From contig CAJXPB010000007.1 in assembly GCA_913057905.1 (NCBI GenBank), forward strand, positions 57,807 through 121,806: a DNA stretch of 64,000 bases. Direction: 5' to 3'. Shown here piece by piece: positions 4,636 to 33,016 of the stretch; the first letter of the stretch is position 1, and the number at the start of each line of letters is the position of its first letter. A program made the position numbers and the translations under genes. Under the pieces are notes generated by a model, which had not been told where the DNA came from, did not search any database, and saw nothing but the letters and a program-made list of their open reading frames with translations. This DNA is from an uncultured Pseudomonadota bacterium. GTDB lineage: Bacteria > Myxococcota_A > Bradymonadia > Bradymonadales > Bradymonadaceae.

Positions 4636-4657
4636 TACCGCCTGCCCAATTCATTAC

Positions 4658-4671
4658 ATACTTTCAAGTAT
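4658..4671. promoter_or_regulatory. second, shorter operator-like palindrome ATACTT-tc-AAGTAT
   Basis: Shares the ATACT/AGTAT half-sites with the palindrome at 4614..4635. It is offset by 44 nt start to start (about four helical turns). Confidence 0.3.
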
Positions 4672-4890
4672 ACATTCAAGCCGGGTTCCGTCGCCGGGAA
4701 GCCGACAGGGCTGTGCGCCGGCAACGTACGGATTGGGCTGAGTTTGACAAGGGGGCGGCGGGCAAAGCCGCTTGCACGGGCTCACCCACCTGTCTAAACT
4801 ACGGTTTGCGTTCGGTGAAAATTCCTCACAGACCTCAAACAGCAGAGGCTTTGAATGTGACCCTACCGCTGAATTGACCGTACGGTTACG

Positions 4891-6228: not shown

Positions 6229-6235
6229 AGGGCCC

Positions 6236-6997
6236 TTACTTATTCCCGCGCGCGAGCTCATCTCTCTCGACCTGTTCCCACAGCCAGGACTCATCGAGAC
6301 CGCCGACCTCGTCGGCCTCGACGGCCCGCCGGCATGCCCGCTGCTGTAGCTCGGCGTGGTCGACCGGCTCGAACGCCCCCTCCGTCCAGACCGTGCCGAC
6401 GAGATCCGTGCCCAGCAGATTCCCGCGGACCCGGTGGCACCACCCCCGGGGCGTCGCCTCTCGGACGATCCGTCCGAACGCGTCCGGCTCGATCCCGAAG
6501 AGAGCCGGCTCCAGGGCGAGTTCCGGCCGTTCGTCGATGACGGTCTGATTCAACGCCACCACGACTGCCCCGACCCGTGACCGAACAATGGCTTCGTCGG
6601 CCAGCCTACGGACGCGACGACGGCGATCCTCGTCGCCGGAGGGCACCTCCCCGTCGATCAGGGTTCCGATGGCCACAGTCAGATCGACGTCGGCCTCGGC
6701 TCGACACACCTCGTAGAGATCGCCGTTCAGGAACCTCATCTGCGGATGTCGCCGGCGCGCTTCGTCGATGGCGTCGTCTCTTCGATCGACCCCGATGTAC
6801 TCCGCATCTCGGCTCGTCCGCTTCATCCACGCTGCCAGTTCGCCGGTGCCACAGCCCAGATCGAGCACCCGATCGACGCGCGACCAATCCCACCCGGAGA
6901 GGACGTACTCGAACCGGGCAAACTGCTCGACCATCCGCCGCCAGCCCGACCGTTGTGCCGGCCCGGTGCCCCGTGACATCGCGTCATTGTAGTCCAT
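6236..6997 (-). CDS. class I SAM-dependent methyltransferase
   Basis: 253 aa. Motif I is VLDLGCGTGELA. Substrate unknown. Confidence 0.8.
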   Translation of the reverse strand: MDYNDAMSRGTGPAQRSGWRRMVEQFARFEYVLSGWDWSRVDRVLDLGCGTGELAAWMKRTSRDAEYIGVDRRDDAIDEARRRHPQMRFLNGDLYEVCRAEADVDLTVAIGTLIDGEVPSGDEDRRRRVRRLADEAIVRSRVGAVVVALNQTVIDERPELALEPALFGIEPDAFGRIVREATPRGWCHRVRGNLLGTDLVGTVWTEGAFEPVDHAELQQRACRRAVEADEVGGLDESWLWEQVERDELARGNK

Positions 6998-16129: not shown

Positions 16130-16984
16130 ATGAGTGACATTGAAACGATAGGCGTGGTCGGCGCCGGACAGATGGGTTCCGGCATCGCCCAGGTTGCAGC
16201 TCAGGCCGAGTTCGACGTCATCCTCTCCGATATCGAAGAGGATGCCCTCGACGAGGGGCTCTCCACGATCCGTGGGAGCCTGGACAAATTCGTCGAGCGC
16301 GAGAAACTCTCAGCCGACGAGCGCGACGCGACCCTCGATCGGATTGAAACGACGACCGAACTGTCGGATCACGCGGCCGCCGATCTGGTCATAGAAGCTG
16401 TCGTCGAAAACGAGGACGTCAAAAAAGACATCTTCGAGACACTCGATGCGCACGTCGACGACTCGACGATCCTCGCCTCGAACACCTCGAGCATCTCGAT
16501 CACCAGCCTCGGTTCGGTCGTCTCACGGCCGGATCGGTTCATCGGCATGCATTTCATGAACCCGGTGCCGCTGATGAGCCTGGTCGAAATCATCCGTAGT
16601 CTGGCGACCTCCGATGAGACGCTCGAGACCGTCGAATCGGTCGCCCAGAAGATGGGTAAAGAAGTCGTCGAGGCCTCCGACTACCCCGGATTCATCGTCA
16701 ACCGAATTCTGATGCCGATGATCAATGAAGCGGCATACGCGCTGATGGAGGGTGTGGCCAGCGCCGAGGACATCGACGACGCCATGGAACTGGGGACCAA
16801 TCAGCCGATGGGCCCTCTGACCCTGGCCGATTTCATCGGCCTCGATACCTGTCTGTCGATTCTCGAGGTCCTGCACGATGACCTCGGCGACCCCAAATAC
16901 CGCCCCTGCCCGCTGCTTCGGAAGCACGTCGAGGCCGGCTGGCTGGGTAAAAAGACCGCACAGGGCTTCTACGACTACAACTGA
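16130..16984 (+). CDS. 3-hydroxybutyryl-CoA (3-hydroxyacyl-CoA) dehydrogenase
   Basis: 284 aa. Rossmann motif [16 protein letters not shown], plus the [15 protein letters not shown] block. Confidence 0.93.
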
Positions 16985-17029
16985 CCGCGCCCGCTCGAGC
17001 TGTGAATCTACCTGGAGCCTCCAAAGACC

Positions 17030-17812
17030 ATGAGCGACTACCAGACGATCGAAGTCACCCACGACGGACCGCGCTCGACCATACAGGTGCAGCGGCCCGA
17101 CAAACTCAACGCCCTCAACACCACCGTGCTCGAAGAACTCGAGGCGGCGGCGCTGGATCTTCAGACTCGTGACGGCCTTCGGGTCGTCGTCGTCGAGGGC
17201 GAAGGGCGAGCCTTTGTCGCCGGGGCGGACATCGCGTCGATGGCCGAGATGTCGGCCGAACAAGGCCGCGCGTTTCTTCGCCAGGGCCACGACACGATGA
17301 ACGCCATCGAGTCGATCCCCGTCCCGACCGTCGCCGCCGTCGACGGATTCGCCCTGGGAGGCGGCCTGGAGCTCGCCATCGCCTGCGACCTGATCGTCGC
17401 CTCCGACCGTGCAGCCTTCGGCGCCCCGGAGGTCAAGCTCGGCATCATTCCCGGCTTTGGCGGAACCCAGCGACTGAGGCGGATGATCGGCGCTCACCGC
17501 GCCCGTCACCTCGTCTTTACCGGCGAACGAATCGATGCGGAGACGGCCGCCGACTATGGGCTGGTCCTCGAGGTTGTCGACGCCGATGACTTCAGCGGGC
17601 ACATCGATTCCCTGGCGAGCTCGATCGAGTCGCGCGGCCCCCTCGCCTTGAAGGCCGCAAAACGAGTCATGCACCAGGGTCAAGATCTCGACCTCGACGA
17701 AGGCCTCTCGGCCGAAAGACAGGCGTTTGCAGACCTCTTCGAGACCGAGGATCGTCTCAAAGGTATGGAGGCGTTCCTGGACCGTCGAGACCCGAACTTC
17801 AACGGCGAATGA
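17030..17812 (+). CDS. enoyl-CoA hydratase (crotonase family)
   Basis: 260 aa. Oxyanion-hole segments FVAGADI and GGGLELAIACD. Confidence 0.93.
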   Translation: MSDYQTIEVTHDGPRSTIQVQRPDKLNALNTTVLEELEAAALDLQTRDGLRVVVVEGEGRAFVAGADIASMAEMSAEQGRAFLRQGHDTMNAIESIPVPTVAAVDGFALGGGLELAIACDLIVASDRAAFGAPEVKLGIIPGFGGTQRLRRMIGAHRARHLVFTGERIDAETAADYGLVLEVVDADDFSGHIDSLASSIESRGPLALKAAKRVMHQGQDLDLDEGLSAERQAFADLFETEDRLKGMEAFLDRRDPNFNGE

Positions 17813-17827
17813 CACCGGATTGAACCC

Positions 17828-18277
17828 ATGAGCGAGACACAGACTAAACAATCCGACGCCTCGCCCCCGGAGACGACCCACCGCGTTTTGATCGGCAAGG
17901 TGGGTCTCGATGGGCACGATCGAGGTGCCAAGGTCATCGCTCGAGCACTCCGCGACGCAGGTTTTGAGGTCATCTATACCGGCCTGCATCAGACGCCGGA
18001 GGCCGTCGCCGCCACCGCCGTCCAGGAGGATGTCGACGGGGTCGGCATCTCGATCCTCTCGGGTGCTCACAACACACTGGTCCCCGAGATCATCGAAGCT
18101 CTGGAGGAACGAGGCGCGGACGACATCTTCGTCTTCGCCGGCGGCATCATTCCCGAAGACGACATCGCGACACTCAAGGATCAGGGCGTGCGAGCGGTCT
18201 TTACCCCGGGCACGCCGACCCGCGAAGTGATCGATTTCGTCCGGGATGCCTGCCGCGAACAGGCAGACAACCGATAA
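17828..18277 (+). CDS. stand-alone cobalamin-binding domain protein (acyl-CoA mutase small subunit)
   Basis: 149 aa. [34 protein letters not shown] carries the DxHxxG B12-binding motif found in methylmalonyl/isobutyryl-CoA mutase C-terminal domains. Confidence 0.9.
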
Positions 18278-18301
18278 CTCCCTCGCCATCACGGAACACC
18301 C

Positions 18302-19453
18302 ATGGAATTCGAACTCGATGAACAACAGAAACTGATCCGAAACACCGTTCGGGACTTTGCCAAGACCCACATCAAGCCCCATGCCGAGGAGTGGGACGAA
18401 AAAGAGGAGTTCCCCCGGGAGCTCTTCTCGAAACTCGGCGACCTGGGCATCATGGGCGTCACCATCCCCGAGAAATACGGTGGAGCCGGTCTCGACTACG
18501 TCTCCTACGCTATCGCCATCGAGGAGCTCGCTCGATACGACGGGTCCGCGGCCCTCACGGTTGCCAGCCACAATTCCCTTGGTTCCGGGCATATCTATCT
18601 GGCCGGCAACGAGGCACAGAAAGAAAAATACCTGCCGAAGTTGGCCCGTGGCGAAGAGTTGGCCGCCTGGGGATTGACCGAGCCAGGCAGCGGTTCCGAT
18701 GCCTCGGGTATGTTGACCAAGGCCGAACGCAACGGCGACTCCTGGATCATCAACGGGGCGAAGACCTTCATTACCCAGGGAAGTGCCGGCGAAGTCGCGG
18801 TGATTCTCGCCTCCACGAGCCCGGAAAAGAGACAAAAGGGCATCACCGCGTTTATTCTCGAAAAGGACATGCCCGGCTACTCGGTGAGCCGAAAGATCCG
18901 CAAGATGGGAATGCGGGCCTCCGATACCGTCGAACTGCGGTTCGACGATGTCGAGGTTCCCGATGAAAATCGACTCGGCGAGGTCGACCGAGGCTTCATC
19001 GACACCCTCAAGATCCTCGATCGCGGCCGCATCAGCATTGCCGCCATGAGTGTCGGACTCGCCCGTGGAGCTCTCGAAGAGTCCATCGATTACGCCCAGG
19101 AGCGTGAACAGTTCGGCAACCCCATCTCGGACTTTCAGGCCATCAAGTTCAAGTTGGCCGACATGGCCACCGAGATCGACGCGGCCCGGCTGCTGACGAT
19201 GCGCGCCGCGACCATGGCGGACCGATCCAAAGAGACGGGACGCCGGTTCACGAAAGAATCGGCCATGGCCAAGCTGTACGCCTCGGAGGCCGCCATGCGG
19301 GCCACCGAAGAAGGCATCCAGATTCACGGCGGCTACGGGTACACCCGCGAGTATCCCGTCGAGCGGTACTTCCGTGACGCCAAGCTCGGTACCATCGGAG
19401 AAGGCACCAGCGAGATTCAGCGCCTGGTCATCGCCCGACAGCTCCTGGATTAG
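18302..19453 (+). CDS. acyl-CoA dehydrogenase (short-chain/butyryl type)
   Basis: 383 aa. C-terminal block [34 protein letters not shown]. Confidence 0.95.
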
Positions 19454-19455
19454 CC

Positions 19456-20403
19456 GTGAGCACAACCCTGGCTGCCGACATACTCGACGGCGACGTTCGT
19501 TCGGCGAGCCGACTCATGCGTTGGCTCGACGACGGACGTCCCGAGGCTAGAGCCGAACTCGATGCGCTCTATCCCCACACCGGCAATGCGTACTTTATCG
19601 GCATCACCGGTCACCCGGGATCCGGCAAGTCCACCCTCGTCGATGCGTTCATCCGCCTGTGCCGGGAACGTGACCTGACCGTCGCCTGTATCGCCGTCGA
19701 TCCCTCGAGCCCCTTCTCGGGCGGGGCCATTCTCGGGGATCGCGTACGCATGAATCGACACGCCCTGGATGACGGCGTCTTCATCCGCTCCGTCGCCACC
19801 CGGGGCAATCTCGGCGGCCTCTCCCGCTCGACCCCGGCGTCCGTCCAGGTCATGGATGCCATGGGGTTCGACATCGTCCTGATCGAGACCGTCGGCGTCG
19901 GACAGGACGAGATAGACATCGTACGACTCGCCGACACGAATGTCGTCGTCATGGTTCCCGGCCTCGGTGACGATATCCAGGCGACCAAAGCGGGCGTCAT
20001 GGAGATCGCCGACATCTTTGCGGTCAACAAGTCCGACCTCGACGGGGCCGACCGCGTCGTCCGCGAAATCAAGACGATGCTGTCGATGAATGAGTCGGCC
20101 GACGACGAGGACGCCTGGATTCCCTCGGTGCTCAAGACCGTGGCAACCCACCAAGAGGGCCTTGAGCCCCTCTTCGAAGCCGTCGAAGCCCATCGGGACT
20201 GGCTTCAAGCACACCGGTCGGACCGAGATCGAGATCGACAGCGCATCGAACAACTCGTACGACTCGTCATCTCCGGAGAGTTCGACGCCCGGATCGGCCG
20301 ACTTCTCGGGACCGATACCTGGAAGAGCCACCTGGAGGCCGTTCTCGACCGAACCGAGACGCCGTACGAAGCGGCCGACGCCCTCTTCGACGAAATCTTC
20401 TAA
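19456..20403 (+). CDS. meaB: mutase-associated G-protein chaperone MeaB/ArgK
   Basis: 315 aa with a GTG start. Walker A GHPGSGKST, switch region IETVGVGQ, and NKxD as VNKSDL. Confidence 0.92.
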   Translation: MSTTLAADILDGDVRSASRLMRWLDDGRPEARAELDALYPHTGNAYFIGITGHPGSGKSTLVDAFIRLCRERDLTVACIAVDPSSPFSGGAILGDRVRMNRHALDDGVFIRSVATRGNLGGLSRSTPASVQVMDAMGFDIVLIETVGVGQDEIDIVRLADTNVVVMVPGLGDDIQATKAGVMEIADIFAVNKSDLDGADRVVREIKTMLSMNESADDEDAWIPSVLKTVATHQEGLEPLFEAVEAHRDWLQAHRSDRDRDRQRIEQLVRLVISGEFDARIGRLLGTDTWKSHLEAVLDRTETPYEAADALFDEIF

Positions 20404-20441
20404 AAAAAAACCCCGGCTGGTTCTCCCAGCCGGGGCTTCTT
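20402..20441. terminator. bidirectional intrinsic terminator (meaB / lipoprotein L1)
   Basis: Perfect 10-bp stem CCCCGGCTGG / CCAGCCGGGG (20411..20420 and 20426..20435) with a 5-nt loop. Preceded by an A9 run, which reads as U9 for the minus-strand gene, and followed by CTTCTT. Confidence 0.7.
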
Positions 20442-20471
20442 GCTGCTGTGATCTGTCGTCATCCGCCGGAT

Positions 20472-21416
20472 TCAAAATCCGGGAGACAACGTCGAGTCGA
20501 CCGCCGGTCGGTGAGCCTCCACTTGGATGTCCTGAGACAATGACGAGGGGCCGAGGCCCTTTTCGTCGATCGTGTTGGTTACGTCGATGGTCTGGACGTC
20601 ATCCTCCCCGGGCTTTACGGAGGGCTCTTCCTCCTGCTCCGAATCTTCGGCCTCGACGACGGCGTCGCTGATCGGCTCGATGAGGTCCATGCCCCAGTCT
20701 CCGATATCGACCTCGACTTCCAGCGACTGCTGGCCCTCCTCGAGGTTCACCTGGTCCAAGGTCAACAGCAGGGGCACGTCACTGGCGTAGGTAAAGGGCG
20801 TCCAGTCGCTGGCCGCCATCAAATCATCTTCCGACATCTCCTCGTACTGCGTCTCGGGCTGCATCGGATGAGGAATAGGATCACCATCTTCTGCACTCCC
20901 ATCAGCACTGGACGACCAGGACTCGGCCGCCTGACTGTTGATAAATCCGTCGAGCTGGAAGGAATAAGGATAACTGCTCGGCGGCGACTCGCCGGAATCC
21001 GAGGAACCGGTATCCATCGCCGATGCTCCGAACTCCCCGGAAATTGGCTCGAGTCGAAGCGTCACATCAAAGGTCCCCGACTCCGGCAGCTCAAAGGAAG
21101 AGGCGTCGACGTACCGTTCGCCTTGTTTGACGTCGACGTCAACTGTTATCGGCTCCGCATTCGTATAAGCGATGCGGCGGCCGTCCTCCTCGACGGGATC
21201 CAGGCGAATCTCGGAGACGGTGAACCCGAGATCAGTAACCGTGAAACCCGACGGCAGTTTGTCGAAGCCGGTCAGATGAAAGGTCGGCTGGACCTCGACC
21301 GGCTCCGAATCCGTCCGCGATGGATTCCCGTCCCCCGGGAGCGTCTCCGCACAGCCCGCGGCCATCAAGGCCACGAGACTGACGGCAGTGAGTATGTCTC
21401 TATATAGTCGGTGCAC
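20472..21416 (-). CDS. acidic lipoprotein L1, unknown family (paralog of 25429..26253)
   Basis: 314 aa, GTG start with GAGGA 5 nt upstream. Signal peptide plus lipobox LMAAGC. Shares LRLEP, F.LDG.I, PIP.P, D.(G/N)DW...LI(E/D)PI and QT(I/V)DVT.T.D blocks with L2. Starts 24 nt after the stop of the bEBP gene. Confidence 0.75.
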   Translation of the reverse strand: MHRLYRDILTAVSLVALMAAGCAETLPGDGNPSRTDSEPVEVQPTFHLTGFDKLPSGFTVTDLGFTVSEIRLDPVEEDGRRIAYTNAEPITVDVDVKQGERYVDASSFELPESGTFDVTLRLEPISGEFGASAMDTGSSDSGESPPSSYPYSFQLDGFINSQAAESWSSSADGSAEDGDPIPHPMQPETQYEEMSEDDLMAASDWTPFTYASDVPLLLTLDQVNLEEGQQSLEVEVDIGDWGMDLIEPISDAVVEAEDSEQEEEPSVKPGEDDVQTIDVTNTIDEKGLGPSSLSQDIQVEAHRPAVDSTLSPGF

Positions 21417-21440: not shown

Positions 21441-24400
21441 TTAACTGACTAATTTCTTCTTCAAGGCCTTCAGATCTTCATCGCCATTGACGATTTGACT
21501 CAGTCTCGGGCGAGTCATCTGAAGGATCTCCGCCGCCCGGGTGATATTGCCCCCGGTCTTGGTCAATGCCCGACGGATCGACTCAAACTCGATGTGTTCC
21601 TTTATCTCGGAGACCGAGAGACCCTCGTCGATGATCTCCTCGATGAGCGCTTCCCTTGGATCGCCGATCTCGACGATATCCGCACCCTCTTCTCCGGACT
21701 CGCCCGTCGATTCATCCTCGATGGCGAACTCCTCCAGCGGTCGGTGAAACTCGACGTCAGGCAGGTCCATGTCGACCTCCCCTTCGCTGAAGAAGTCTCT
21801 AAACTCTTGGATGTGTTCGATCTCAACGGTTGGGCCGTCGACGAACAAGAGGACGCTGCGAACGAAGTTTTGCAGCTCCCGGATGTTCCCGGGCCAACTG
21901 TACGCCGCCAAAAATTCGAGGGCCTGTTCCGAGAACGCCTTCGGCTCCCGGTCGGCAAACTTCTCTGCAAAGTGATGGACCAGAAGAGGGATGTCGGCCC
22001 GTCGCTCGCGCAGTGGGGGAAGGTCGAGCACGACACCCTTGAGCCGATAGTACAGGTCGAGTCGGAAGGTACCCTCGTCGACCATCGTCTCGAGGTCGCG
22101 ATTGGTGGCACACACGACCCGGACGTCGACTTCCCGGGTCTCGTTGCCGCCGACGCGCTCAAATTCGCCCTCTTGCAGAACGCGCAACAGCGCCACCTGG
22201 GCCTTCTGCGAGATCTCGCCAATCTCGTCGAGGAAGATGATACCCCCGTCGGCTTTCTCGAACCGGCCGGTGGTCTGCTTGACCGCACCGGTGAAGGCGC
22301 CCTTCTCGTGGCCGAACAACTCACTGAGTAGCAGGTTGTCGACAAACGCCCCGCAATTGACCTTCACGAAGGGCATCTCGCCCGAGCTATTGGCCTGTTG
22401 ATGGATGGCCTCGGCGACAAGCTCCTTACCGGTCCCCGACTCGCCTTGGATTAGAACCGGCGATTCGCTGTCGGCAATCTGTTCGACGCGTCGAAACAGC
22501 CGCAACAGCCGTTCGTCCTGTCCGACGATGTCGTCGAACTGGGACCGCCAGCGCCGAAATGCCGCGTCGGAGCGCCAGTCGGTATCCCCAGCCGAATCCA
22601 ACGGTTTCTCGTCGTCGGTCTCGGCCGCCCCGTCATCCACATAGTCATCGAGTTCCGAAGGAATCTGTCCCTGGAGACGATGGACGATATTGATAAGACG
22701 ACGGTGAAGCGGATTCTCGAAGAAGCTGTCTCGGTATTCCTGGGGGACGTTGCTTCCTCGCCTCTGTATGTCGGCGAGCCACTTTTCTGCGACCGATTCG
22801 GCCTCTTGGGTTCGCCCCGTCTTTTCGAGGCCGCGGATCTGGGCGAGCGCACCCTGGAGTGCATCGTCCGGCATGGACTGGTCCTGCATCGCCTCGACCG
22901 ATTCGCGCCCCCTCCGAACAGCCTCTTCCCACTGCTCCCGGGCCACGGCAATATGGGCCCTCCCCACGCTGACGATTCCGTCGAGCACGTCCCCGTCCGC
23001 AGTGTTGTCACGGTCGGCGAATCTCGCGGCGAGTTTCTCGGCCTCTTCGACCTGGCCGAGTTGTGCGTGGGCGATGATCGACCGAGCGACCGCCCGGTTC
23101 GCCGGCCCACGTGATGGTGTATTCTCGTGGGTATCGGTCCAGGCGCGGGTCGATTCGAGCATATCCCCGTATTCGCCGCGCGCCAGGTGGACCATCACCA
23201 TCAGCACCCGCGGCAGTGACCCCAGATAGGTCTGTTCGTCGACGTCCTGCCGGGACTGGAGGTGGTGAGCAATTTTTTCAACCGAGTCGAGCGCACCCAT
23301 GTCCCGGAAGAGCGTGCCGAGGTTATAGGCGGCGACCCCGTAGGACCAACGGTCGCCGGATTGTTGGGCGGCGCGCATGGCATCCCGGTAGCGCTCCATC
23401 GCCGAATCGTATTCGTCGACTCGCTGGAGGGCCATGCCCAGGTTCAGAATCGGCTCGGCGCGGGGCATCCCGTTTGGCATCCCCGAGCGGTCAATGACGT
23501 CACGAAGCCGTGAGATGCCCTTCTGGTATTGGCTCTCCTGAAGGTCACAGACGGCCAAGTTGACCTCGGCGCGGAGTTCTTCGACCTCCCAGCCCCACTG
23601 CCGGGCGACATTCAGATTCCGTTCGTAGATGGGTCGTGCGGCATCGATATTGCCGCCCATGATCTCGACCTTGCCGAGCATATTCTTGGCCCGGACGTCG
23701 AGTTTTTCAGTGGTTCGCTCATCGAGAGAATCGCCCTGCTCCTCGATTACCTCGAGTGATGCCTCGGCCTCTCGCCGTGCGCCATCCTGATCCCCGAGTT
23801 TGTAGTGGGCGTCGGCGATACCCAGGCGAGCTCGAAGTCGAGTCTCCGCAGAGGGCTTATGCTCTGAGATAGCCTCCTCGTACGTCTCAACCGCGCGATC
23901 GAAGTCATCGCTCTCGACGAGGAGGTCGCCCCGTTCAACGGTCAATCGAGCGGCCTCGGAGTGTTCGGCCTTTTCGATCAGTTCCCGGTTGGCCTCCAGT
24001 GCGGACTCGTACTCCCCAAGGCCTTCGTAGATATCGACCAGAAAGGCCAAGATTTCGCGTCTCTCGTCGCCGGACGGGCACATCGGCAGAATGCGCTCGA
24101 ACAGTTCCCGGGCATCGTGCAGGGCATGGCGACTGTGCATGCGTCGGGCCGCCCGCATTCCGTATTCAAACCCGGCTTCCTCGTCGCCCGCCGCCAAGAA
24201 GTGGCGAGCGATGAAGGCCTCATCGAGACCGGCACCGTGGTGAGCTCGCGTGCTCGCCTCGGCCAGCACACGATGGATCCGTCGGGCGTGAGATTCGTCA
24301 AGATGGGAGCGTACGGACCGGGCAAACCCGGCATCTTCGAGTTGCAGGGTTACGCATCCATCGCCGATCGAGCGACGCACAAAGCCTGCGTCGCGGAGCT

Positions 24401-25328
24401 GGCGCATCAGTCGGCCCGCAGAATCGGACATCTCAAGGCGGTCGATGGCCCGCTCCAACACGTCGACCGGAATCGCCTGCTCGGCGACGGCCAGAAGCTG
24501 CACGACTCGCTGCTTGGGTTCGTCGAGGTCGCGGTATCGATGCTCCCACAAATTCGTACAATCCGTCGGCAGCTCGTCCATCAATACATCGAGCTGAGTC
24601 GGATTGCCCTCGGTGGATGCCAAAAACCGGTCGACGACGTCTTCCCTGGATAAGAACGCTTTGACCGATTGTCGCGCAGCGTCTGTCAGGTCGATGACGT
24701 CGGCGAGCTCTTCGTTGACGCCGAAGGGTGTCTCGCGGCCGACCTGGCCAACCACAGCTACACACCCGCGCACGGAGTCAAAGGCGTCGAGGCCGCCGCC
24801 GAATTCTTCGAAGGGGCCGTGCAGGTATTCCCGGACGAATCGTCCCAGAATGGAGCGTTCCGTCTCTGAGAGTTGTTCGGGATGAACCACCAGCAACAGA
24901 GCCGGTCGCACCTGACTGAGCCGCTCCCAGAGCATACAGGCCGACGACTCAAACGACGAGGCGTCGACGGAGCCTTCGTCGTCTTGGCCGCCCACATTTC
25001 GAGAGGTCGCGATGAATTCGGCGAGTCCCTCGGTCTGCTCATCCAGCGAAGCGTGTTGCTCGACGCGGCCCACGTACGTCGACACGACCTCTCGGAACGT
25101 GGTGCCATCGCCGATTCCACCGGTGGGGTCGAGCACGAGCAATTCGGTATCGCGCTCGGTCACCGCATTGCGCAGGTCCCCGACATGCTCACCGATGGCG
25201 CCGCCTCCGGCCCCGATCAGATGAACAAGTCGACCCGCGTGTTCATCGGAACACAATTCATCGGCCAACGCATCGGGGTCCCACCCAACCACCTCGTCGC
25301 TGTCGGACTTCGGACTCGGTTCGGTCAT
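21441..25328 (-). CDS. giant sigma54-dependent activator (bEBP-1): degenerate STAND-like N-domain + TPR array + AAA+ sigma54-interaction domain + Fis-type HTH
   Basis: ORF 21441..25349 trimmed to the ATG at 25328 (MTEPSPKSD...), which aligns with the paralog's start. Walker [15 protein letters not shown] encoded at 22284..22301, Walker B IIFLDEI, WPGNIRELQN, and a C-terminal [23 protein letters not shown]. There is no receiver domain. Confidence 0.9.
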   Translation of the reverse strand: MTEPSPKSDSDEVVGWDPDALADELCSDEHAGRLVHLIGAGGGAIGEHVGDLRNAVTERDTELLVLDPTGGIGDGTTFREVVSTYVGRVEQHASLDEQTEGLAEFIATSRNVGGQDDEGSVDASSFESSACMLWERLSQVRPALLLVVHPEQLSETERSILGRFVREYLHGPFEEFGGGLDAFDSVRGCVAVVGQVGRETPFGVNEELADVIDLTDAARQSVKAFLSREDVVDRFLASTEGNPTQLDVLMDELPTDCTNLWEHRYRDLDEPKQRVVQLLAVAEQAIPVDVLERAIDRLEMSDSAGRLMRQLRDAGFVRRSIGDGCVTLQLEDAGFARSVRSHLDESHARRIHRVLAEASTRAHHGAGLDEAFIARHFLAAGDEEAGFEYGMRAARRMHSRHALHDARELFERILPMCPSGDERREILAFLVDIYEGLGEYESALEANRELIEKAEHSEAARLTVERGDLLVESDDFDRAVETYEEAISEHKPSAETRLRARLGIADAHYKLGDQDGARREAEASLEVIEEQGDSLDERTTEKLDVRAKNMLGKVEIMGGNIDAARPIYERNLNVARQWGWEVEELRAEVNLAVCDLQESQYQKGISRLRDVIDRSGMPNGMPRAEPILNLGMALQRVDEYDSAMERYRDAMRAAQQSGDRWSYGVAAYNLGTLFRDMGALDSVEKIAHHLQSRQDVDEQTYLGSLPRVLMVMVHLARGEYGDMLESTRAWTDTHENTPSRGPANRAVARSIIAHAQLGQVEEAEKLAARFADRDNTADGDVLDGIVSVGRAHIAVAREQWEEAVRRGRESVEAMQDQSMPDDALQGALAQIRGLEKTGRTQEAESVAEKWLADIQRRGSNVPQEYRDSFFENPLHRRLINIVHRLQGQIPSELDDYVDDGAAETDDEKPLDSAGDTDWRSDAAFRRWRSQFDDIVGQDERLLRLFRRVEQIADSESPVLIQGESGTGKELVAEAIHQQANSSGEMPFVKVNCGAFVDNLLLSELFGHEKGAFTGAVKQTTGRFEKADGGIIFLDEIGEISQKAQVALLRVLQEGEFERVGGNETREVDVRVVCATNRDLETMVDEGTFRLDLYYRLKGVVLDLPPLRERRADIPLLVHHFAEKFADREPKAFSEQALEFLAAYSWPGNIRELQNFVRSVLLFVDGPTVEIEHIQEFRDFFSEGEVDMDLPDVEFHRPLEEFAIEDESTGESGEEGADIVEIGDPREALIEEIIDEGLSVSEIKEHIEFESIRRALTKTGGNITRAAEILQMTRPRLSQIVNGDEDLKALKKKLVS

Positions 25329-25428
25329 GGATCCTCGATTCGGCCACAAGAGTGCCTAATACCTAATAGATGAGGATAGGCATTGTGAGTGCTGGATCAA
25401 ACGCACGGGGTCACGGCGTTGTCGTAGA

Positions 25429-26253
25429 TCACCGCATCCGAAGCGTTCGCACCCGCACGTCTCCAGCGAGTGACTGATAGCCGCGGCCTGTCGAATCGAG
25501 GGTCTGCGTGACGTCCACGGTTTGGGGAGCGTCGGTCTGATCATCGTCTTTCGCTCGCGCCCGAACCAGTCGGGTAATCGGGTCGATCAGCTCCTCGGCC
25601 CAGTCGTTGACGTCGAGTGCGAAGCTCAGCACCCGACGGTCCTGGGCCAATTCCACGCGGTCCATGCGGTACGTTACCGCTTTCTGGCTCTCGTATTCGA
25701 ATGCAACCCAGGATTGCTGCTCCGACGACTCGGAGGTCTCGTCGTCATCGGGGTGGAACGGGTCCGGTATCGGATTGCCGCCGTCTTGGTAGGGGTCGTT
25801 CGAATCGAGGGCCTCGGCGATCTCCGGGCTGATCAAGCCATCGAGCCGAAACGTGTATTTGTCCTGCTCGCCCGCCGGCTCGAGACGCAACTCCACGGCA
25901 TAATCGCCGGGTTCGGGCACGGAAAACTCGGCCCCCTGCCGAACCAGCTCCCCCTGTTGCATATCAAACTCGACCCGAAACGGATCGTCGACGACGATGG
26001 ACTCGCTGCCATCGGCGGGAATCAACGTGATTTGAGCGACGCTGAACCCGAGCCGCTTCAGTTGAAGCGCCTCCGGAATCTGTCCGGTTCCCTCGACGGC
26101 GAACTCGGGCACCACGGTGAGTGCCGTGGAGTTCGACCGCACCGAGTCCGGCCCAGAACTGTCAGGGGTCGTCGTGTCGGCGCATCCGGTCGCAACCCCT
26201 ACGAGCCCCGCCACTACGACTGCCAAACACGTGTCTGTCCAATCTATCCTCAC
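25429..26253 (-). CDS. acidic lipoprotein L2, unknown family (paralog of 20472..21416)
   Basis: 274 aa with a GTG start. Lipobox GVATGC. Starts 25 nt after the stop of bEBP-2. Shared motif blocks are listed under L1. Confidence 0.75.
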   Translation of the reverse strand: MRIDWTDTCLAVVVAGLVGVATGCADTTTPDSSGPDSVRSNSTALTVVPEFAVEGTGQIPEALQLKRLGFSVAQITLIPADGSESIVVDDPFRVEFDMQQGELVRQGAEFSVPEPGDYAVELRLEPAGEQDKYTFRLDGLISPEIAEALDSNDPYQDGGNPIPDPFHPDDDETSESSEQQSWVAFEYESQKAVTYRMDRVELAQDRRVLSFALDVNDWAEELIDPITRLVRARAKDDDQTDAPQTVDVTQTLDSTGRGYQSLAGDVRVRTLRMR

Positions 26254-26278: not shown

Positions 26279-29200
26279 TTAGCCGACCAATTCTTCCTTC
26301 AACGCAACCAACTCGTCATTCCCGTTGACGATCTGGCTGAGCCGCGGACGCGTCATCTGCAATATTTCGGCAGCGCGCGTGATGTTGCCCTCGGTCTCGA
26401 TCAATGCTCGGCGGATCGACTTGTGCTCGATCCGTTTCTTCATGTCCGAGATCGACATTCTGTCCGCGACGATCTCTTCGACCAGCGCATCCTGCACCTC
26501 GTCGAAGGAGTTCGGCCCGCCCCATCCGGGCTGAATGACGTCGCTGAAGTCGTCGACCTCGGGATTGTAGTCGATATCCGGCGCTTCTAATTCGACATCT
26601 CCATCTTCGAAGAAGTCGTCGAACTCCCGGATGTGGTCCATTGTGACGGTATCGCCGTCGACAAACAAGAGCACACTGCGCACGAAGTTCTGGAGCTCAC
26701 GGACGTTGCCCGGCCAATTGTACGAGGCGAGAAACTCTCGGGCCTCGCGGTCAAAGTCGACGGCCTCGCCCTCGGCAAACCGGTCCGTGAAGTGTCGCAG
26801 AAGTCGGGGAATGTCCCCTCGGCGGTCCCGAAGCGGGGGCAGCTCCAGGACGACTCCCTTGAGCCGGAAATACAGATCCCGGCGAAATTGCCCCTGTTCA
26901 ACCAGCCGCTCGAGGTCCTGTGACGTCGCAGCGACGACCCGTACGTCGGCCGAATAGGTCTCCGTTCCCCCGAGTCGTTCGTAGTTGCCGTCCTGCAGCA
27001 ATCGCAGCAGTGCGACCTGTCCCTTCGGCGAAATGGCATCGATCTCATCGAGAAACAGCGTCCCTCCGTCGGCAGCGACCACGCGGCCCTCTTTCGAACG
27101 GGCGGCCCCGGTGAAGGCCCCTTTCTCGTGTCCGAAGAGTTCGCTGAACAACAAGTTCTCGCCGTAGGCGCCGCAATTGACCCGCACCAGATCGGCGTTC
27201 GATCGCTGGTCTGCCCCGTGGCGGTGAATCGCCCGCGCCACGAGCTCTTTGCCCGTGCCGCTCTCGCCCTCGATGAGTACGGGCGAACGGCTTTCGGCGA
27301 CCTGATCGATTCGGCGGAGCACCCGGATGAGCCGATCATCCTCTCCCACGATCTCGGCGTAGCGAGCCCGCCAGGCCCGATATTCTTCATCCGAGGGGAC
27401 CTCCGGTTGCTGTTCGTGACCGTCGGTCTCTGTCTGAGCCCCGTCGTCGTCAAAGACCCAACCGGAGACATCTTCGGGAACGTCGCCCTTCAGCGAACGG
27501 TAGGTCTCAAGAAGCTGCCGGTGACGGTGGACGCGGTAGTATCGGGGCCGAAACGACTCAGGAACCTGTTCGGCCCTGCGCTGCAGTTCGCTGAAGGCCC
27601 GACTGGCCACCGATTCGGCCTCCGATTCGCGATCCAACTCGACGAGGCCCCGAATACGGGCGAGTGTGCCGACGAGCGCATGGCGGAAGAACCCCTCCTG
27701 TTCGAGCGTCTCGGCAGCGCGTTTGCCCTGAGCGATCGCCTCGTTCCAGTCCTGGTCTTCGACCGCGAGTTTCGCCAGCGCAGCTTCTCGCCAGCCGCGC
27801 GCTACCTCGGCATCGGCCCGTTCGGAATCGGTCTCGAGGGACTCGAGGGCCCGGCGAGCGGCCTCGAGTTGACCGAGCTCCACGTGGGCCACCGGGGTCG
27901 ACGCCGCGGCGAAGAACGCGGGTCCTTCGGCGGCTCCGCTTTGGTTCGAGTCGATCCATTCGGTCGTAATCTCGAGCATCTCGGCGAAGTCGCCGCGATC
28001 CATGTGCATGTTGGCGCTGAGGCCGCGCGGCAGCGATCCCAGGTAGTCGTGGCGATCTTCTCGAGATTGCTGGGCTTCGAGGTGATTCGATATCGCCTCG
28101 AGCCGGTCCCAGGCCCCGAGATCCTGATACAGGGTACCCAGGTTGTAGGCCGTGACTCCGTAGACGCGCTCGTCTCCGATCTGTCGGGCAACTCGAAGGG
28201 CCTCCTGGTAGCGCTCCAGCGCTTCGCTGTACTCGTTTTTACGCTGCAGGGCCATCCCGAGGTTGAGCAGAAGTTGAGGCTGCGGCATGCCATCGGTCCC
28301 GGCAGACCTCGATCGCACCTCTTCGAAGATCGCGATCGCCTGGTCGTAGTTGCCCTCCTGCATATGGCAGATCGCCAGGTTCTTGTCGGCTCGGTCGACC
28401 TCACGACTCCAGTTCCACTCCTCGGCGATCCGGCGGTTGGTCTCGAACAGCGAGCGGGCATCTTCGGCCCTCGAACCCATGACCTCGACCTTCCCGATCT
28501 GGTTTCGGGCGCGAATCGCCAGACGATCCGCCGCGGATTCGTCGATATTCAGCCGGCCGTCGGCGTCGCCACCGGCGTCGGCTGTCACCGCGAGCACATC
28601 CTCCGCGTGGGCCCGTGCGTCGTCGTACCGGCCGCGGTTGTAGTCGACGTCCGCGAGACCGAGCTTCGCCTTTGCCCAAAGCTCCGAAGTGGATTCGACG
28701 GTATCGAAGATCCCGGCAAACAGATCGGCGGCCTCCTCGAGGCGGCCGCGCTTTGTCAGAATCTGGGCGCGACGGATGTCGACACGCGCCCGGTCGGCGT
28801 CGCTGGCGGCCGCATTCCTGAGCTCCCCGCACGTCTCCATGGCCCGGTTCAACTCTCCGAGGCCCTCGTAGGTGTCGACGAGATACTCATGGATCTCGCG
28901 GCGCGAGTCCTCGTCGGGGGCATACTCCAGCAGTGACTCGAACAACCCTCGAGCCTCTTCGAGCGCATGGTGACTGTGGAGGCGTCGGGCCGCTCGCCGA
29001 CCGAACTCAAAGCCCCGCTCCCCCGCTCCAGCCGCCAGGAAATGCTTGGCGACAAACTGGTCACCGAGCTGGTTCAAATGGTGAGAGTCCGCCGCTGTCT
29101 CGGCGAGGGCCCGATGGAGGGGTTCACGAATATGCGCTTCCATCCGCTGAACCAGTGCATCCCCGAAGCCCGGGTCTTCGAGTTGAACGGTCACACAATC

Positions 29201-30172
29201 CGACTGGACCGAGCGGCTCAAGAACCCTTCGGAGCTGAGATCTTGGATCGCAGCCGAGGCCGAGCCGCCTTCGACACGTCTGTATGCATCCTGCAAAATA
29301 TCGACGGGCACGGCGATATCCGCGATGGCCAGAAGATCAACGACGACCTGCCGTTCGGCGGGGAGCTGTCGATACCGAAATTCCCAGAAATTGGTGCAGT
29401 CGTCGGGCATCGCCTCCATCAGGACATCGAGACGGCCCGGGTCTCCGCCCGTCGTCGAGACGAATCGGTCCACGACCTCCTGCTGAGTCAGGTACGACCG
29501 AACGGTGCTGCGCGCCGCACCGGAGAGATCCACGACATCGACGACGTCCTCGTCGATATCGAGGTTCGGGGGCCTGCCGGCATCACCGACGAGCGCAACG
29601 CAGCCGCGGAACTCTTTTGAGGTCGAGGCATCGGGCGCGAGCTCCAGAACCGGATCGCGCAGATGTTCCGACACAAACCGTTCGAGTGCCGAACGCTCGC
29701 TGATGCTGCACTCCCCGGCGTTGACGACCATCAATACCGCCGGCCGGTGGGTCGACAGGCGCTCCCACAGCCGGCCCATCGAGGATTCGAAGTACCGGGC
29801 TTCGACCACATCGTCCGACTGCTCTTCGGCCGTGTCCCGCGAGGTCGACAGAAATTCCGCAAGCTGGCGAGACTCCGAGTCCAGTGACGTGTGCTGAGAG
29901 ACCCGTCGTACGTAGGCAGTCGCGACATCACGGAAGGTGGTCCCATCTCCGACCCCACCCGTCGGATCGAGCACGAGAAGCTCGACGCCGCGGCGAGTCA
30001 TACTCGCTCGAAGTTCGCCCAGGCGGCGCTGGATCGCCCCGCGTCCCATGCCACGCACGTCGACTACCCGCCCGGCGTGCTTGTCATCGCAGAGAACCTC
30101 CGCAAGGCCGGAGGGATCCCAGTCTTTTTGGGACGACTCGTCGTTGGATTGCTCAGTCTGGGTCGATTCCAT
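26279..30172 (-). CDS. giant sigma54-dependent activator (bEBP-2), paralog of 21441..25328
   Basis: ORF 26279..30187 (TTG) trimmed to the ATG at 30172 ([10 protein letters not shown]...). Walker [15 protein letters not shown] encoded at 27104..27121, [10 protein letters not shown], and a C-terminal [22 protein letters not shown]. It aligns with bEBP-1 from the N-terminus ([19 protein letters not shown] vs GWDPDALADELCSDEHAGR) to the C-terminus. Confidence 0.9.
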
Positions 30173-30352
30173 TCGAAAACCTTCCAATCCCTGTTGAACG
30201 GTGCATGGTGGCTGATGCCGCAGCTCCCGCCCCCGCTTCGAGGGGGACCGATCCTCCGGGACCGAAGAGATGCGCTCACCCAGCCATCTTATGTATGAAC
30301 GTAACGAACCTTACGCATGGTTTCAACGTTGAGGCCCGCGTGCGTAATCCAT

Positions 30353-30368
30353 CGGGACGGTGTTTGCT
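30353..30368 (+). promoter_or_regulatory. sigma54 (-24/-12) promoter candidate: cGGgACG-gtgt-TTGCT
   Basis: Compared with the consensus TGGCACG-N4-TTGCW. The GG (30354-55) and GC (30366-67) have the required 10-nt spacing, and the -12 TTGCT is perfect. There are two mismatches in the -24 box. It lies 70 nt upstream of the ATG at 30438 and is divergent from bEBP-2. Confidence 0.5.
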
Positions 30369-30437: not shown

Positions 30438-31130
30438 ATGCGACGCTTTTTCGTATTGGCGACTGTCTTCGCAGTCACCCTCGCTGCCGGATGCGGTTGG
30501 TTGAAGGACGACATCGAAGATCTGACCACCGTCGATATCTCGGCGGAAATCCCCGCCGAGTTCCCCGTCGACGCCTCCGAGGCCTGCAGTACGGCCATCG
30601 AGGGGATCGACAGTTGCGACCAGGGAGGCACCGCCCCTGCACCGATGCGGATCGAACTCGATCCGATCGAGTTCGACCTGAACGTCGATGTCGTCGAGGC
30701 TACCGGGAAGTCCAGACTCGGCGACGCCGTCGACCGGCTCGAGAGCGTCACGATCACGAGTATCGACTGGGAGGTCCGGGACAATTCCCTCTCGTTCAAT
30801 TTGCCCGAAACGTCCCTGTACGTCGGAGAGTTCGATGCCGAATCTCGCAACCACGAATCGGCTTTCTCGGTAGCCAAGATTCCCTCGGTTCCGGCGGAGA
30901 CCGACGATTCCGGGACGTCTCAGGTCTCAGACGAAGACCAGTCCAAACTGAGCGATCTGCTGATCGGCGACGACAAAGAGACCGACGAAAAGCTCAAGTT
31001 GTCCGTGATTCCATATACCGTCCCGCGTATCGAGCAGGGACAGGACGTGCCGCCCAACGGCAGCGCCACCATCGACGTGACCATCAACGCCGAATTCGTG
31101 GCCACGCCCAAGTCGGTCGTCTCCAACTGA
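30438..31130 (+). CDS. lipoprotein, unknown family
   Basis: 230 aa. Starts MRRFFVLATVFAVTLAAGC (lipobox), with GGAG 6 nt upstream of the ATG. The mature part is acidic and has no recognisable motif. Confidence 0.7.
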   Translation: MRRFFVLATVFAVTLAAGCGWLKDDIEDLTTVDISAEIPAEFPVDASEACSTAIEGIDSCDQGGTAPAPMRIELDPIEFDLNVDVVEATGKSRLGDAVDRLESVTITSIDWEVRDNSLSFNLPETSLYVGEFDAESRNHESAFSVAKIPSVPAETDDSGTSQVSDEDQSKLSDLLIGDDKETDEKLKLSVIPYTVPRIEQGQDVPPNGSATIDVTINAEFVATPKSVVSN

Positions 31131-31221
31131 GCCAAACCGAAATATATAGCCGGCGAGCGCCGTTCACGAGTGCGACCTCTTCGCCCTATCGCCTCCCGAA
31201 CTGATTTTGAATCCGAGCCAT

Positions 31222-32157
31222 ATGAATCGACTGGTATCAAATCACTCCCTATCGCTGTCGCTGCTGATTGTCGCCGCCGTCGGACTGTATTCCAGTGTCG
31301 CCCTCGCCGAAGACGCCGGCGACCAGCCCGAAAAAGCGGCCGAGCCGAAACAGGCCGAGTCGACGGGCGATGCCGGGACTGCAGACCAACCCAAGTCGGA
31401 TCGAGCCGCCGGTGCCCAGGAATCGTCGGAGACCGAGTCAGATGGAAATGGCTCCGACAGAATTCTGGTCGATTACACCGGCCGACTCCAGGACCAGAGC
31501 GGATCGCCGATCAGCGGCGTGTTTCACTTTGAGTTCAACCTCTACTCCGACAGCAAGTCCGCCGAACCCCTCTGGACGGAGACCCGATACGTCGCCGTCG
31601 TCGACGGCAGCTACACGTTACCCCTCGGACAGAATGTGAAACTGCAACGAGAACACATCGCCGGGCCCCGCTGGATCGGTGTCGAATTGGTCGGCGAGGG
31701 AGAGATTCTTCGAGATAAACTGTCGATCAAAGAGACGAGTCCCGACGATGAGGCCGATGGAGACGGAGCGGTCTCTGAGAAGACGAAACGTTGGCTCGAC
31801 CGAGCGGCCAACAACAGCGACATGACCTTTGCCGAGGTCGCCAAGCGCGCTGTCTTCGCCGACCGCGCCGACCGCGCGGAGACGGCCCAGAAGGTCGGCT
31901 CGCTGACGGCCGAGGAGATCGAGCGGCTCTCAAATCTTTCGATGGAGCGCCTCGGAGAACACATCGCCGACCCCGAAGCCCACGGGGCCACCGGTCGCAC
32001 GCTGGGCGACGAAACACGCGTGCTTGACCAGGTGGGCGGCTCGGGCGGTGCGAGTTACCGTACCGAATGTCCGCCGGGGTTCGTGGTCACCGGGATTAAG
32101 GGGGGCGCGGGCGACATGCTCGACAGCATCGCCCTCATCTGCCGCCGCCTACAGTAA
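31222..32157 (+). CDS. secreted protein, unknown family, with a Cys-bracketed C-terminal motif
   Basis: ORF from the TTG at 31207. I prefer the ATG at 31222 (MNRLVSNHSLSLSLLIVAAVGLYSSVALAEDAGD, a signal peptide). The C-terminus is ...YRTECPPGFVVTGIKGGAGDMLDSIALICRRLQ. Confidence 0.65.
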   Translation: MNRLVSNHSLSLSLLIVAAVGLYSSVALAEDAGDQPEKAAEPKQAESTGDAGTADQPKSDRAAGAQESSETESDGNGSDRILVDYTGRLQDQSGSPISGVFHFEFNLYSDSKSAEPLWTETRYVAVVDGSYTLPLGQNVKLQREHIAGPRWIGVELVGEGEILRDKLSIKETSPDDEADGDGAVSEKTKRWLDRAANNSDMTFAEVAKRAVFADRADRAETAQKVGSLTAEEIERLSNLSMERLGEHIADPEAHGATGRTLGDETRVLDQVGGSGGASYRTECPPGFVVTGIKGGAGDMLDSIALICRRLQ

Positions 32158-32182
32158 CGACCACTCACGTGGAGTTTCCGAG

Positions 32183-33016
32183 ATGGGATCTTTGAGCCGC
32201 GCAGCGCGAGTAATCTTGGTATCGGCTTGCCTGCTGGTTCTCAGCGGCATCTACGGCTGCGACTCAAAGGTCCGAGGCCCCTCCCAGAGCCCGGGCACCA
32301 CCGACACGGACCGAAAGGCCGAGCAGACCGCTGCCGCCGAAGAACCCGCGGCCCCTTCCGCGCCGACGGCCCCCTCGGCCTCGGCTCTGGATGACTTCAC
32401 CGACCACCTGTCCGGACAGGGCCCGCTGGTGGCGACAATCGACACCACCGAGGGTTCGATTCGCTGCCGGCTCTTCGAGGACCGCACCCCCATCACCGTC
32501 GCGAATTTCGTCGGGCTGGCTCGCGGGGAGATCACCTGGGCCGATCCCACCGATGGAGATGTCGTCCGCGGGAAGCCCTTCTACGACGGGGTCGAATTCC
32601 ACCGCGTCATTCCCGAATTTGTTATCCAGGCGGGCGACCGCACGGGCACTGGAAAGCACGGCCCCGGATACACGATCCCCGACGAATTCGACCCATCCTT
32701 GCGGTTCGAAGTCCCCGGCGTTCTCGGGATGGCCAATCGCGGGCCCGATACCGGCGGAAGTCAGTTCTTCATCACCGAAAAGCCGCTGCCGCACCTGAAT
32801 GACCGTCACACGGTCTTCGGCATCTGCCGGGATCTGGACACCGTCCGACAAATCGCCCGAACGCCGGCCGGACCGGACAATCATCCCGAAAACGCCGTCC
32901 TGATTCGACGTATCACCTTCGAGCGCAGCAGCTTTTCGCGGGATCTGCCTCCAGAGGGCGACCGGGAGGGTGCCGAGCCGCTGGAGTTGCCCAACGGCGA
33001 CGAAAGCAGCGGCTGA
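32183..33016 (+). CDS. cyclophilin-type peptidyl-prolyl cis-trans isomerase, lipoprotein
   Basis: ORF 32024..33016 trimmed to MGSLSRAARVILVSACLLVLSGIYGC (lipobox; ATG at 32183). Cyclophilin blocks FHRVIPEFVIQAGD and GMANRGPDTGGSQFFIT. Confidence 0.92.
   Translation: MGSLSRAARVILVSACLLVLSGIYGCDSKVRGPSQSPGTTDTDRKAEQTAAAEEPAAPSAPTAPSASALDDFTDHLSGQGPLVATIDTTEGSIRCRLFEDRTPITVANFVGLARGEITWADPTDGDVVRGKPFYDGVEFHRVIPEFVIQAGDRTGTGKHGPGYTIPDEFDPSLRFEVPGVLGMANRGPDTGGSQFFITEKPLPHLNDRHTVFGICRDLDTVRQIARTPAGPDNHPENAVLIRRITFERSSFSRDLPPEGDREGAEPLELPNGDESSG

Follow-up and report, generated by a model that had tools for sequence, protein, structure and literature searches.

Two tandem genes in the stretch of contig CAJXPB010000007.1 analysed here (the window, 64,000 nt; all coordinates are positions within it) encode giant predicted activators of sigma-54 RNA polymerase, whose N-terminal module appears to descend from a STAND (signal transduction ATPase with numerous domains) that has lost its nucleotide site. 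We call these putative bacterial enhancer-binding proteins (bEBPs) bEBP-1 (21441..25328, minus strand, 1295 aa) and bEBP-2 (26279..30172, minus strand, 1297 aa). Both are built, in the same order, from a degenerate nucleotide-binding oligomerisation domain (NOD), an array of tetratricopeptide repeats (TPR), a sigma-54 AAA+ domain and an HTH_8 DNA-binding motif. They are paralogs with 47% identity over the whole length; by segment, residues 16-375 are 47.5% identical, the TPR array 41.5% and the sigma-54 AAA+ part 63.7%. The open reading frames (ORFs) 21441-25349 and 26279-30187, both on the minus strand, are intact in translation. With ATG start codons at 25328 and 30172, the segments 24429-25328 and 29273-30172, singled out by the original prediction, are indeed the first 300 codons of the two genes.

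The C-terminal part of both proteins is easily recognised. In the Pfam scan, Sigma54_activat scores 226.6 bits in bEBP-1 and 210.3 bits in bEBP-2 (cut-off 20.2), AAA_lid_14 75.9 and 70.0 bits (cut-off 27), and HTH_8 29.5 and 24.1 bits (cut-off 22). The AAA+ domain with its lid lies at 21804..22529 (minus strand, residues 934-1175) in bEBP-1 and, according to Pfam and motif inspection, at 26624..27352 (minus strand) in bEBP-2, and the HTH_8 motif of bEBP-1 is at 21507..21596 (minus strand, residues 1245-1274). The GAFTGA loop that contacts sigma-54, the Walker A and B motifs of the AAA+ module (Walker B being FLDEIGE in bEBP-1 and FLDEIDA in bEBP-2) and the sensor residues of this module are retained in both. 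The TPR sensor array of bEBP-1 occupies 22629..24203 (minus strand, residues 376-900), with matches to TPR_12, TPR_14, TPR_16 and TPR_19. The Pfam TPR families span approximately residues 420-700 in both proteins, and TPR_12 reaches 68.5 and 69.6 bits in bEBP-1 and bEBP-2, so the C-terminal repeat sensor expected of a STAND is present. TPR_MalT matches bEBP-2 weakly and the relatives clearly, and the TPR region is homologous across the family. The order foreseen for this part, a TPR array followed by a canonical bEBP ATPase and HTH, is what the scan returned, with an array of about 500 residues.

Neither protein contains a REC, GAF, PAS or V4R domain according to Pfam, in agreement with the original prediction, and no transmembrane segment was found in either; both are acidic, with a pI of about 4.7. 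On every point that a sequence can address the two proteins look like bEBPs, and we predict that they are cytoplasmic sigma-54 enhancer-binding proteins with a sensor of about 920 residues. Residues 1-400 of both have no Pfam match at all, and NCBIfam leaves the N-terminal 900 residues without a match. NifA and NtrC are the NCBIfam models most similar to the two proteins, over the AAA+ domain plus the C-terminal HTH region, and all equivalog matches are far under their cut-offs.

Homology to AAA_16-bearing relatives and the modelled fold identify the N-terminus as an AAA_16-like STAND NOD, consisting of a nucleotide-binding domain (NBD), a helical domain (HD) and a winged-helix domain (WHD). 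This degenerate NOD is placed at 24204..25247 in bEBP-1 (minus strand, residues ~28-375; hhalign, AlphaFold2 and Foldseek) and at 29048..30091 in bEBP-2 (minus strand; alignment and hhalign). A profile of 23 degenerate N-termini was compared with a profile of 11 N-termini with an intact P-loop using hhalign, which gave a probability of 99.94% and an E-value of 4.7e-37 over 347 columns (residues 28-380). This comparison sets GAGGGAIG and GMGRGAIQ against Walker A, and LLVVHPEQLS against Walker B. The likeness to a P-loop NTPase did not arise by chance: in an alignment of 56 sequences the two loops fall column for column on GPAGVGKS/T and hhhhHDLHxAD of relatives with a Pfam AAA_16 domain. The original prediction had made its case depend on profile searches finding an NTPase-like fold; hhalign finds it through the relatives, and Pfam is silent on residues 1-400. 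In the helical domain, the motif TEGNPTQLDVLMDELP of bEBP-1 (24567..24614, minus strand, residues 239-254) is the apparent counterpart of the STAND GxP and AAA+ lid motif. In the hhalign comparison TEGNPTQLDVLM pairs with atGGnPsaLeqLL of the P-loop-intact relatives, and thereby the likeness drawn earlier between this helix and the GGNP helix of known regulators holds; a profile search also matched this helix weakly to TRGDIRQ, the lid motif of RFC1. Sequence alone fails to link the N-terminus to solved STANDs, as phmmer and profile searches against the PDB sequences returned only this weak RFC1 match.

The NOD was modelled with AlphaFold2 from the two paralogs (pLDDT 68) and from nine family members (pLDDT 76). 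In both models a beta-alpha-beta core with five strands is accompanied by a helical bundle and a winged helix. The top Foldseek matches in the PDB are CED-4 and Apaf-1 (E 4e-6) for the first model, and the TPR-STAND PH0952 (6MFV, E 1.5e-5), Apaf-1, CED-4 and Dark for the second. ORC/Cdc6 and plant NLRs rank next; the STAND matches and ORC/Cdc6 all have a probability of 1.0 with E-values around 1e-5. The winged-helix domain of bEBP-1 (24294..24521, minus strand, residues 270-345) is assigned from the model, in which it forms three helices and a beta hairpin (pLDDT 81-92), and from local Foldseek matches to ArsR/MarR winged helices. We regard the fold as supportive evidence, insufficient alone, and the homology as the stronger line; together they bear out the STAND/AAA_16-type layout that had been proposed for the N-terminus.

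We examined the nucleotide site of this domain by aligning 56 N-termini with MAFFT. The remnant of Walker A is GAGGGAIG in bEBP-1 (25191..25214, minus strand, residues 39-46) and GMGRGAIQ in bEBP-2 (30029..30052, minus strand, residues 41-48), both in register with GPAGVGKS/T; in these columns the Lys is replaced by Ile, and the Ser/Thr by Gly in bEBP-1 or Gln in bEBP-2. The remnant of Walker B, ALLLVVHPEQLS in bEBP-1 (24867..24902, minus strand, residues 143-154), is in register with VILLHDLHRAD, and in these columns (LLLVVHPEQLS in bEBP-1) the Asp is replaced by His in bEBP-1 or Asn in bEBP-2. A dead P-loop lacking the Lys-Ser/Thr pair and a hydrophobic strand replacing Walker B had both been predicted, and the alignment confirms them. 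The strings quoted in support, GAGGGAIGEH (residues 39-48), ALLLVVHPEQLSETER (143-158) and TEGNPTQLDVLMDELP, are present as claimed, together with their bEBP-2 counterparts.

The Walker A pattern GxxxxGK[ST] and the Walker B pattern hhhhD(D/E), which reads hhhhDLHxAD in this lineage, are expected of AAA_16/MalT-type STAND NTPases and are absent from the NOD of both proteins. AAA_16 does not score above its gathering threshold on the N-terminus of either, and its sole alignment falls, below the cut-off, in the sigma-54 domain. Because the NOD is homologous to AAA_16/MalT STANDs yet fails Walker A, Walker B and Pfam AAA_16, we describe it as a predicted STAND-derived pseudo-NTPase and not as a STAND NTPase. 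The glycine-rich loop that had been noticed at the Walker A position is found in both paralogs, but it is not a property of the clade: it is confined to them and their closest relatives, and most members of the degenerate clade read G-[VLIM]-[ST]-x-x-Q, so no phosphate-binding loop is conserved.

The two proteins belong to a larger family. An exhaustive HMMER search with a profile of both N-termini (residues 1-375) against 1.8 billion representatives returned 79 cluster representatives, 44 of them at E < 1e-10, i.e. the family comprises at least 79 clusters at 50% identity. A word-index homologue search found nothing with the N-terminal 400 residues or with an 18-sequence N-terminal alignment, but the full-length query, like the exhaustive search, did find the family. 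Among the representatives, 54 out of 79 are longer than 1,100 residues, and every one of these 54 matches the sigma-54 AAA+ domain, at approximately residues 810-1,040; an exact GAFTGA is found in 49 and the TPR region is common to most. Twelve more distant representatives have a perfect GxxGxGK[ST] at residues 5-78. All seven P-loop-intact members that were scanned with Pfam match AAA_16 (E 1e-16 to 1e-28), and these also carry TPR_12, TPR_MalT, Sigma54_activat, AAA_lid_14 and HTH_8.

The motifs are lost in grades. Walker A and Walker B are both intact in 12 representatives, to which three that read GVGKG are added; Walker A is lost and hhhhDLHxAD retained in 11; and both motifs are lost in 28 representatives and the two window proteins. 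The N-terminal AAA_16 scores fall stepwise, from 60-101 to 45-63 and 33-42 bits, and then to no match. In a neighbour-joining tree of the full-length proteins, midpoint-rooted and without bootstrap or other support values, the three grades form three separate clades, and the window proteins are placed deep in the doubly degenerate one. A single origin of each motif loss would be a reasonable, not a demonstrated, reading of this tree. Because the deeper branches of the family keep an intact P-loop, the fusion of NOD, TPR and sigma-54 domains is old, and only the dead site is specific to a clade.

One locus, L003 from a Bradymonadaceae metagenome-assembled genome, was obtained by a profile scan of genome contigs with a six-sequence alignment, and it is the sole taxonomically labelled relative. 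The genome-contig scan with the two-paralog alignment and the metagenome-contig scan returned no locus. The family also includes a variant headed by a Ser/Thr kinase, P0088 (L006, 6001-12138), which has 2,045 residues with Pkinase, AAA_16, TPR, GAF, Sigma54_activat and HTH_8.

The dead NOD is under purifying selection. Using the orthologs on a near-identical metagenome contig (L002), we obtained ratios of nonsynonymous to synonymous substitution rates (dN/dS) of 0.138 and 0.124 for the NOD of bEBP-1 and bEBP-2, 0.125 and 0.079 for the TPR region, and 0.053 and 0.102 for the sigma-54 domain. The values for the NOD are comparable to those for the TPR region and not far from those for the sigma-54 domain. 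Its length and secondary structure persist across sequences that are 24-50% identical, as do several motifs (RLW..LS...PAVL, DP[IV]..L.PE, GGD..RL and a His in the helix that follows the WHD).

The comparison with L002 also revealed a sharply bounded divergent tract at ~21600-24600 (bEBP-1 residues ~245-1240), where the nucleotide identity is 62-85% whereas it is 93-99% in the surroundings. The tract runs from the helical domain of bEBP-1 through the TPR array into the AAA+ domain and has its centre in the TPR sensor. For the TPR part we obtained a dS of 1.6 and a dN/dS of 0.125, and the bEBP-2 protein is 97.8% identical to its ortholog. Gene conversion between the paralogs was ruled out as the source, the cross-paralog nucleotide identity being 66-69%. 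It looks as if recombination had exchanged the bEBP-1 sensor for a divergent allele.

We compared the two proteins with known regulators of similar layout. MalT and the LAL regulators (large ATP-binding regulators of the LuxR family; AAA_16, TPR_MalT and GerE) also have a TPR/SUPR sensor after an AAA_16-type NOD, and in both groups the NOD and the sensor would control the transcription output. However, the output of MalT is a LuxR/GerE HTH that works with sigma-70 RNA polymerase, whereas the window proteins have a sigma-54 AAA+ domain and a Fis-type HTH_8; moreover MalT needs ATP, while Walker A and B are dead here. Because no GerE HTH is found in them by Pfam they are not LAL/MalT proteins, and none of the MalT-specific equivalogs gave a match. 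PH0952 of Pyrococcus horikoshii (6MFV), the structure that the improved model matches best, shares the NBD-HD-WHD NOD, an arm and the TPR sensor, and is a documented case of double autoinhibition according to the account of it in PMC6468293. It differs in binding ADP in an intact site and in having an N-terminal ArsR-like effector; the identity is 11% and the global TM-score 0.28. AfsR, a large Streptomyces antibiotic regulatory protein (SARP) with the order SARP-NOD-TPR, is likewise an activator in which NOD and TPR inhibit the effector domain, as its description in PMC10936776 has it. In AfsR, however, the effector is N-terminal (OmpR-type plus BTAD), ATP binding relieves the inhibition, and the protein acts on sigma-HrdB RNA polymerase, whereas in the window proteins the effector is C-terminal and predicted to be specific for sigma-54, and the NOD appears to lack a canonical ATP-binding site. 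Pfam finds neither Trans_reg_C nor BTAD in them, and because there is no BTAD they are not SARPs.

With the classical bEBPs under negative N-terminal control, of the NtrC1, DctD, XylR, NorR, PspF and NifA types, the window proteins share the Sigma54_activat domain (210-227 bits), GAFTGA and HTH_8, but their sensor is not a REC, GAF, PAS, V4R, PRD or FHA domain and itself descends from an ATPase that oligomerises. The P-loop-intact relatives (P0045, P0057, P0064, P0066, P0068, P0076 and P0079, and the kinase fusion P0088) are full-length homologues of the same domain order and size. These differ in keeping GxxGxGK[ST] and hhhhDLHxAD and in being recognised by Pfam AAA_16, and P0088 adds an N-terminal Ser/Thr kinase and GAF. 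None of them is characterised in the literature that we searched.

The N-terminal domain of a bEBP usually controls assembly of the AAA+ hexamer (NtrC1, DctD, XylR, NorR). In STANDs, the sensor and the arm lock the NOD in its closed form; once an inducer has bound, nucleotide exchange allows multimerisation, as outlined for the class in PMC6468293. PH0952/MalT and AfsR are documented cases in which NOD and TPR autoinhibit an effector (PMC6468293, PMC10936776). The most economical model, and one we consider reasonably probable, is that the NOD-TPR module acts as a nucleotide-independent, ligand-gated intramolecular inhibitor or scaffold of AAA+ ring assembly. The NOD would have descended from an AAA_16/MalT-like NTPase and since lost Walker A and Walker B. 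Together with the TPR array it would hold the sigma-54 AAA+ domain in a non-assembling state, and the binding of a ligand or protein to the array would release that domain. The nucleotide-exchange step of the NOD may be dispensable, since the fused sigma-54 AAA+ domain would supply ATP-dependent ring assembly; after fusion to this second ATP-dependent oligomeriser the STAND nucleotide step would have become redundant and been lost in stages. The active hexamer would then remodel sigma-54 RNA polymerase at target promoters, probably those of cell-envelope genes. We hold the identity of the parts to be very probably correct; we are far less sure of the direction of control.

Several points weigh against this model. 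The glycine-rich loop is kept in both paralogs and would be compatible with non-canonical nucleotide binding. The global TM-scores of the models to STAND structures are low (0.25-0.30), and residues 172-186 and 200-260 are modelled with low confidence; we attribute the low TM-scores to differing inter-domain angles and to the low-confidence loops. The proposed mechanism is drawn by analogy from STANDs and from bEBPs under negative regulation. Finally, the surroundings of the operon yielded no conserved sigma-54 promoter or enhancer, and the 64-kb window no rpoN gene.

The alternative that survives best, though we think it rather unlikely, reverses the sign of the control: the dead NOD-TPR module would be a positive assembly platform that oligomerises on partner binding, possibly as hetero-oligomers of bEBP-1 and bEBP-2, and would unite the sigma-54 AAA+ domains by induced proximity as in the apoptosome. 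STAND NODs are oligomerisation domains (so described in PMC6468293), the Foldseek matches include active apoptosome chains, and the window, L002 and L007 all retain two co-oriented paralogs without a terminator-like site between the gene pairs. However, the gene is single-copy in most relatives (L001, L004 and L008), so hetero-oligomers cannot be a general mechanism, and canonical STAND oligomerisation needs the open form with bound ATP, which is not available to these proteins. It is improbable that the NOD is still a working nucleotide switch, in which ATP/ADP or another nucleotide binds in a non-canonical pocket and its exchange gates activation as in MalT and AfsR. The fold, the GxP-like position and the position of the WHD His are retained, and a glycine-rich loop occupies the P-loop position in both window paralogs, but the Walker A Lys and Ser/Thr and the Walker B Asp are all replaced and no N-terminal AAA_16 signal is left; in the clade the loop is neither glycine-rich nor conserved, so no nucleotide-binding loop is under selection there. 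That the N-terminal region is a decaying relic without a regulatory role, in activators that are constitutive or otherwise controlled, would fit the loss of the catalytic motifs and the silence of Pfam, but it is strongly disfavoured and very improbable given a NOD dN/dS (0.12-0.14) similar to that of the TPR array, the preservation of length and secondary structure over a deep clade at 24-50% identity, and a paralog identity that is higher in the NOD (47.5%) than in the TPR region (41.5%).

Reviews and surveys of bEBPs sort the regulatory domains as receiver, GAF, PAS, V4R, PRD/phosphotransferase system (PTS) or none (e.g. PMC3162934), and the scheme of Francke et al. (PMC3162934) has only response regulators, other signal domains, none and PTS types. 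The STAND-plus-TPR sensor falls outside these categories and yet defines a sizeable family of giant activators. The original prediction could not place this architecture among described bEBP classes; it is right in that no STAND- or AAA_16-TPR bEBP class was found in the searched literature and no NCBIfam model was found to name the family, which is absence of evidence and not proof, but the architecture is not unique to the window. The fusion is widespread in sequence databases, P0088 included, and is therefore unstudied rather than unseen; current profile libraries label the degenerate branch merely as TPR plus Sigma54_activat. Two ATP-driven oligomerisation machines have been joined in one chain and one of them lost stepwise, and this makes the family a natural system for studying the contribution of the nucleotide switch to STAND signalling and the gating of bEBP ring assembly. 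It is also an entry point to sigma-54 regulation in the lineage of the labelled Bradymonadaceae relative.

Each of the two genes is followed by a gene for an orphan acidic lipoprotein. The gene lipoA-2 (25429..26253, minus strand, lipobox ATGC) lies 25 nt 3' of bEBP-2, and its paralog lipoA-1 (20472..21416, minus strand, lipobox AAGC) 24 nt 3' of bEBP-1; the two proteins are 31% identical, and the lipoprotein family has no match in Pfam, NCBIfam or the PDB. A lipoA homologue is found 3' of all ten family bEBP genes with a readable 3' flank, at a gap of 9-33 nt: two in the window, two each in L002 and L007, and one each in L001, L003, L004 and L008. The homologues outside the window and L002 are located at 11745-12557 (L001), 3219-4130 (L003), 5979-6845 (L004), 3946-4818 and 8857-9750 (L007) and 4236-5129 (L008). 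Members of this family have 270-314 aa and bear a lipobox, and the pairing persists down to a bEBP identity of 39%. The partnership of the family bEBP with a downstream lipoprotein gene is obligatory. In the window the bEBP-lipoA pair is tandemly duplicated, and because the pairing recurs at every readable related locus, the duplicated unit is bEBP plus lipoA. No terminator-like site was found between the lipoA-2 stop and the bEBP-1 start, the only weak candidates being inside genes.

Upstream of bEBP-2 a further orphan lipoprotein gene, lipoD (30438..31130, plus strand, 230 aa), is transcribed divergently. It is followed at 31207..33016 (plus strand) by a gene for a 316-aa protein without a Pfam match and then by a cyclophilin-type peptidyl-prolyl isomerase (PPIase) gene, whose coding sequence probably begins after the ORF start at 32024. 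lipoD and the PPIase gene also adjoin the bEBP gene in L001, L002 and L004, and the 316-aa protein is also found in L002. This divergent gene set suggests a cell-envelope theme for the locus.

A bolder reading, which we put forward as tentative and regard as doubtful, holds that an old clade of sigma-54 activators runs a STAND module without nucleotide, the ligand-gated change of a pseudo-NTPase scaffold directly licensing the fused AAA+ ring. The three grades would record the retirement of one of two redundant ATP-dependent oligomerisation engines, and the co-inherited lipoprotein would belong to the same envelope-sensing circuit.

A search of the window for the sigma-54 promoter consensus TGGCAC-N5-TTGCW with two mismatches returned 12 matches where 15.6 were expected, i.e. 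no enrichment. Two candidates fit GG-N10-GC with 8 out of 10 consensus bases: CGGGACGGTGTTTGCT at 30353-30368 (plus strand), 70 nt 5' of lipoD, and AGGCACTCTTGTGGC at 25357-25343 (minus strand), 14 nt 5' of the bEBP-1 ATG, which is too near that ATG for a normal leader. We claim neither, as both are common only to the window and L002 and are absent from L001, L004, L007 and L008.

At its 3' end the operon is closed by a strong convergent terminator, a perfect 10-bp GC-rich hairpin at 20411-20435 (CCCCGGCTGG-TTCTC-CCAGCCGGGG) located between the convergent genes MeaB and lipoA-1; it is probably bidirectional. Two very long minus-strand ORFs downstream, 16523-19465 (980 aa) and 19450-20475 (341 aa), were rejected as members of the operon, being shadow ORFs antisense to plus-strand genes. 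The real genes at 16130-20403 (plus strand) encode a 3-hydroxyacyl-CoA dehydrogenase, an enoyl-CoA hydratase, a B12-binding domain protein, an acyl-CoA dehydrogenase and MeaB, and this acyl-CoA/MeaB gene order is the same in L002 and L007.

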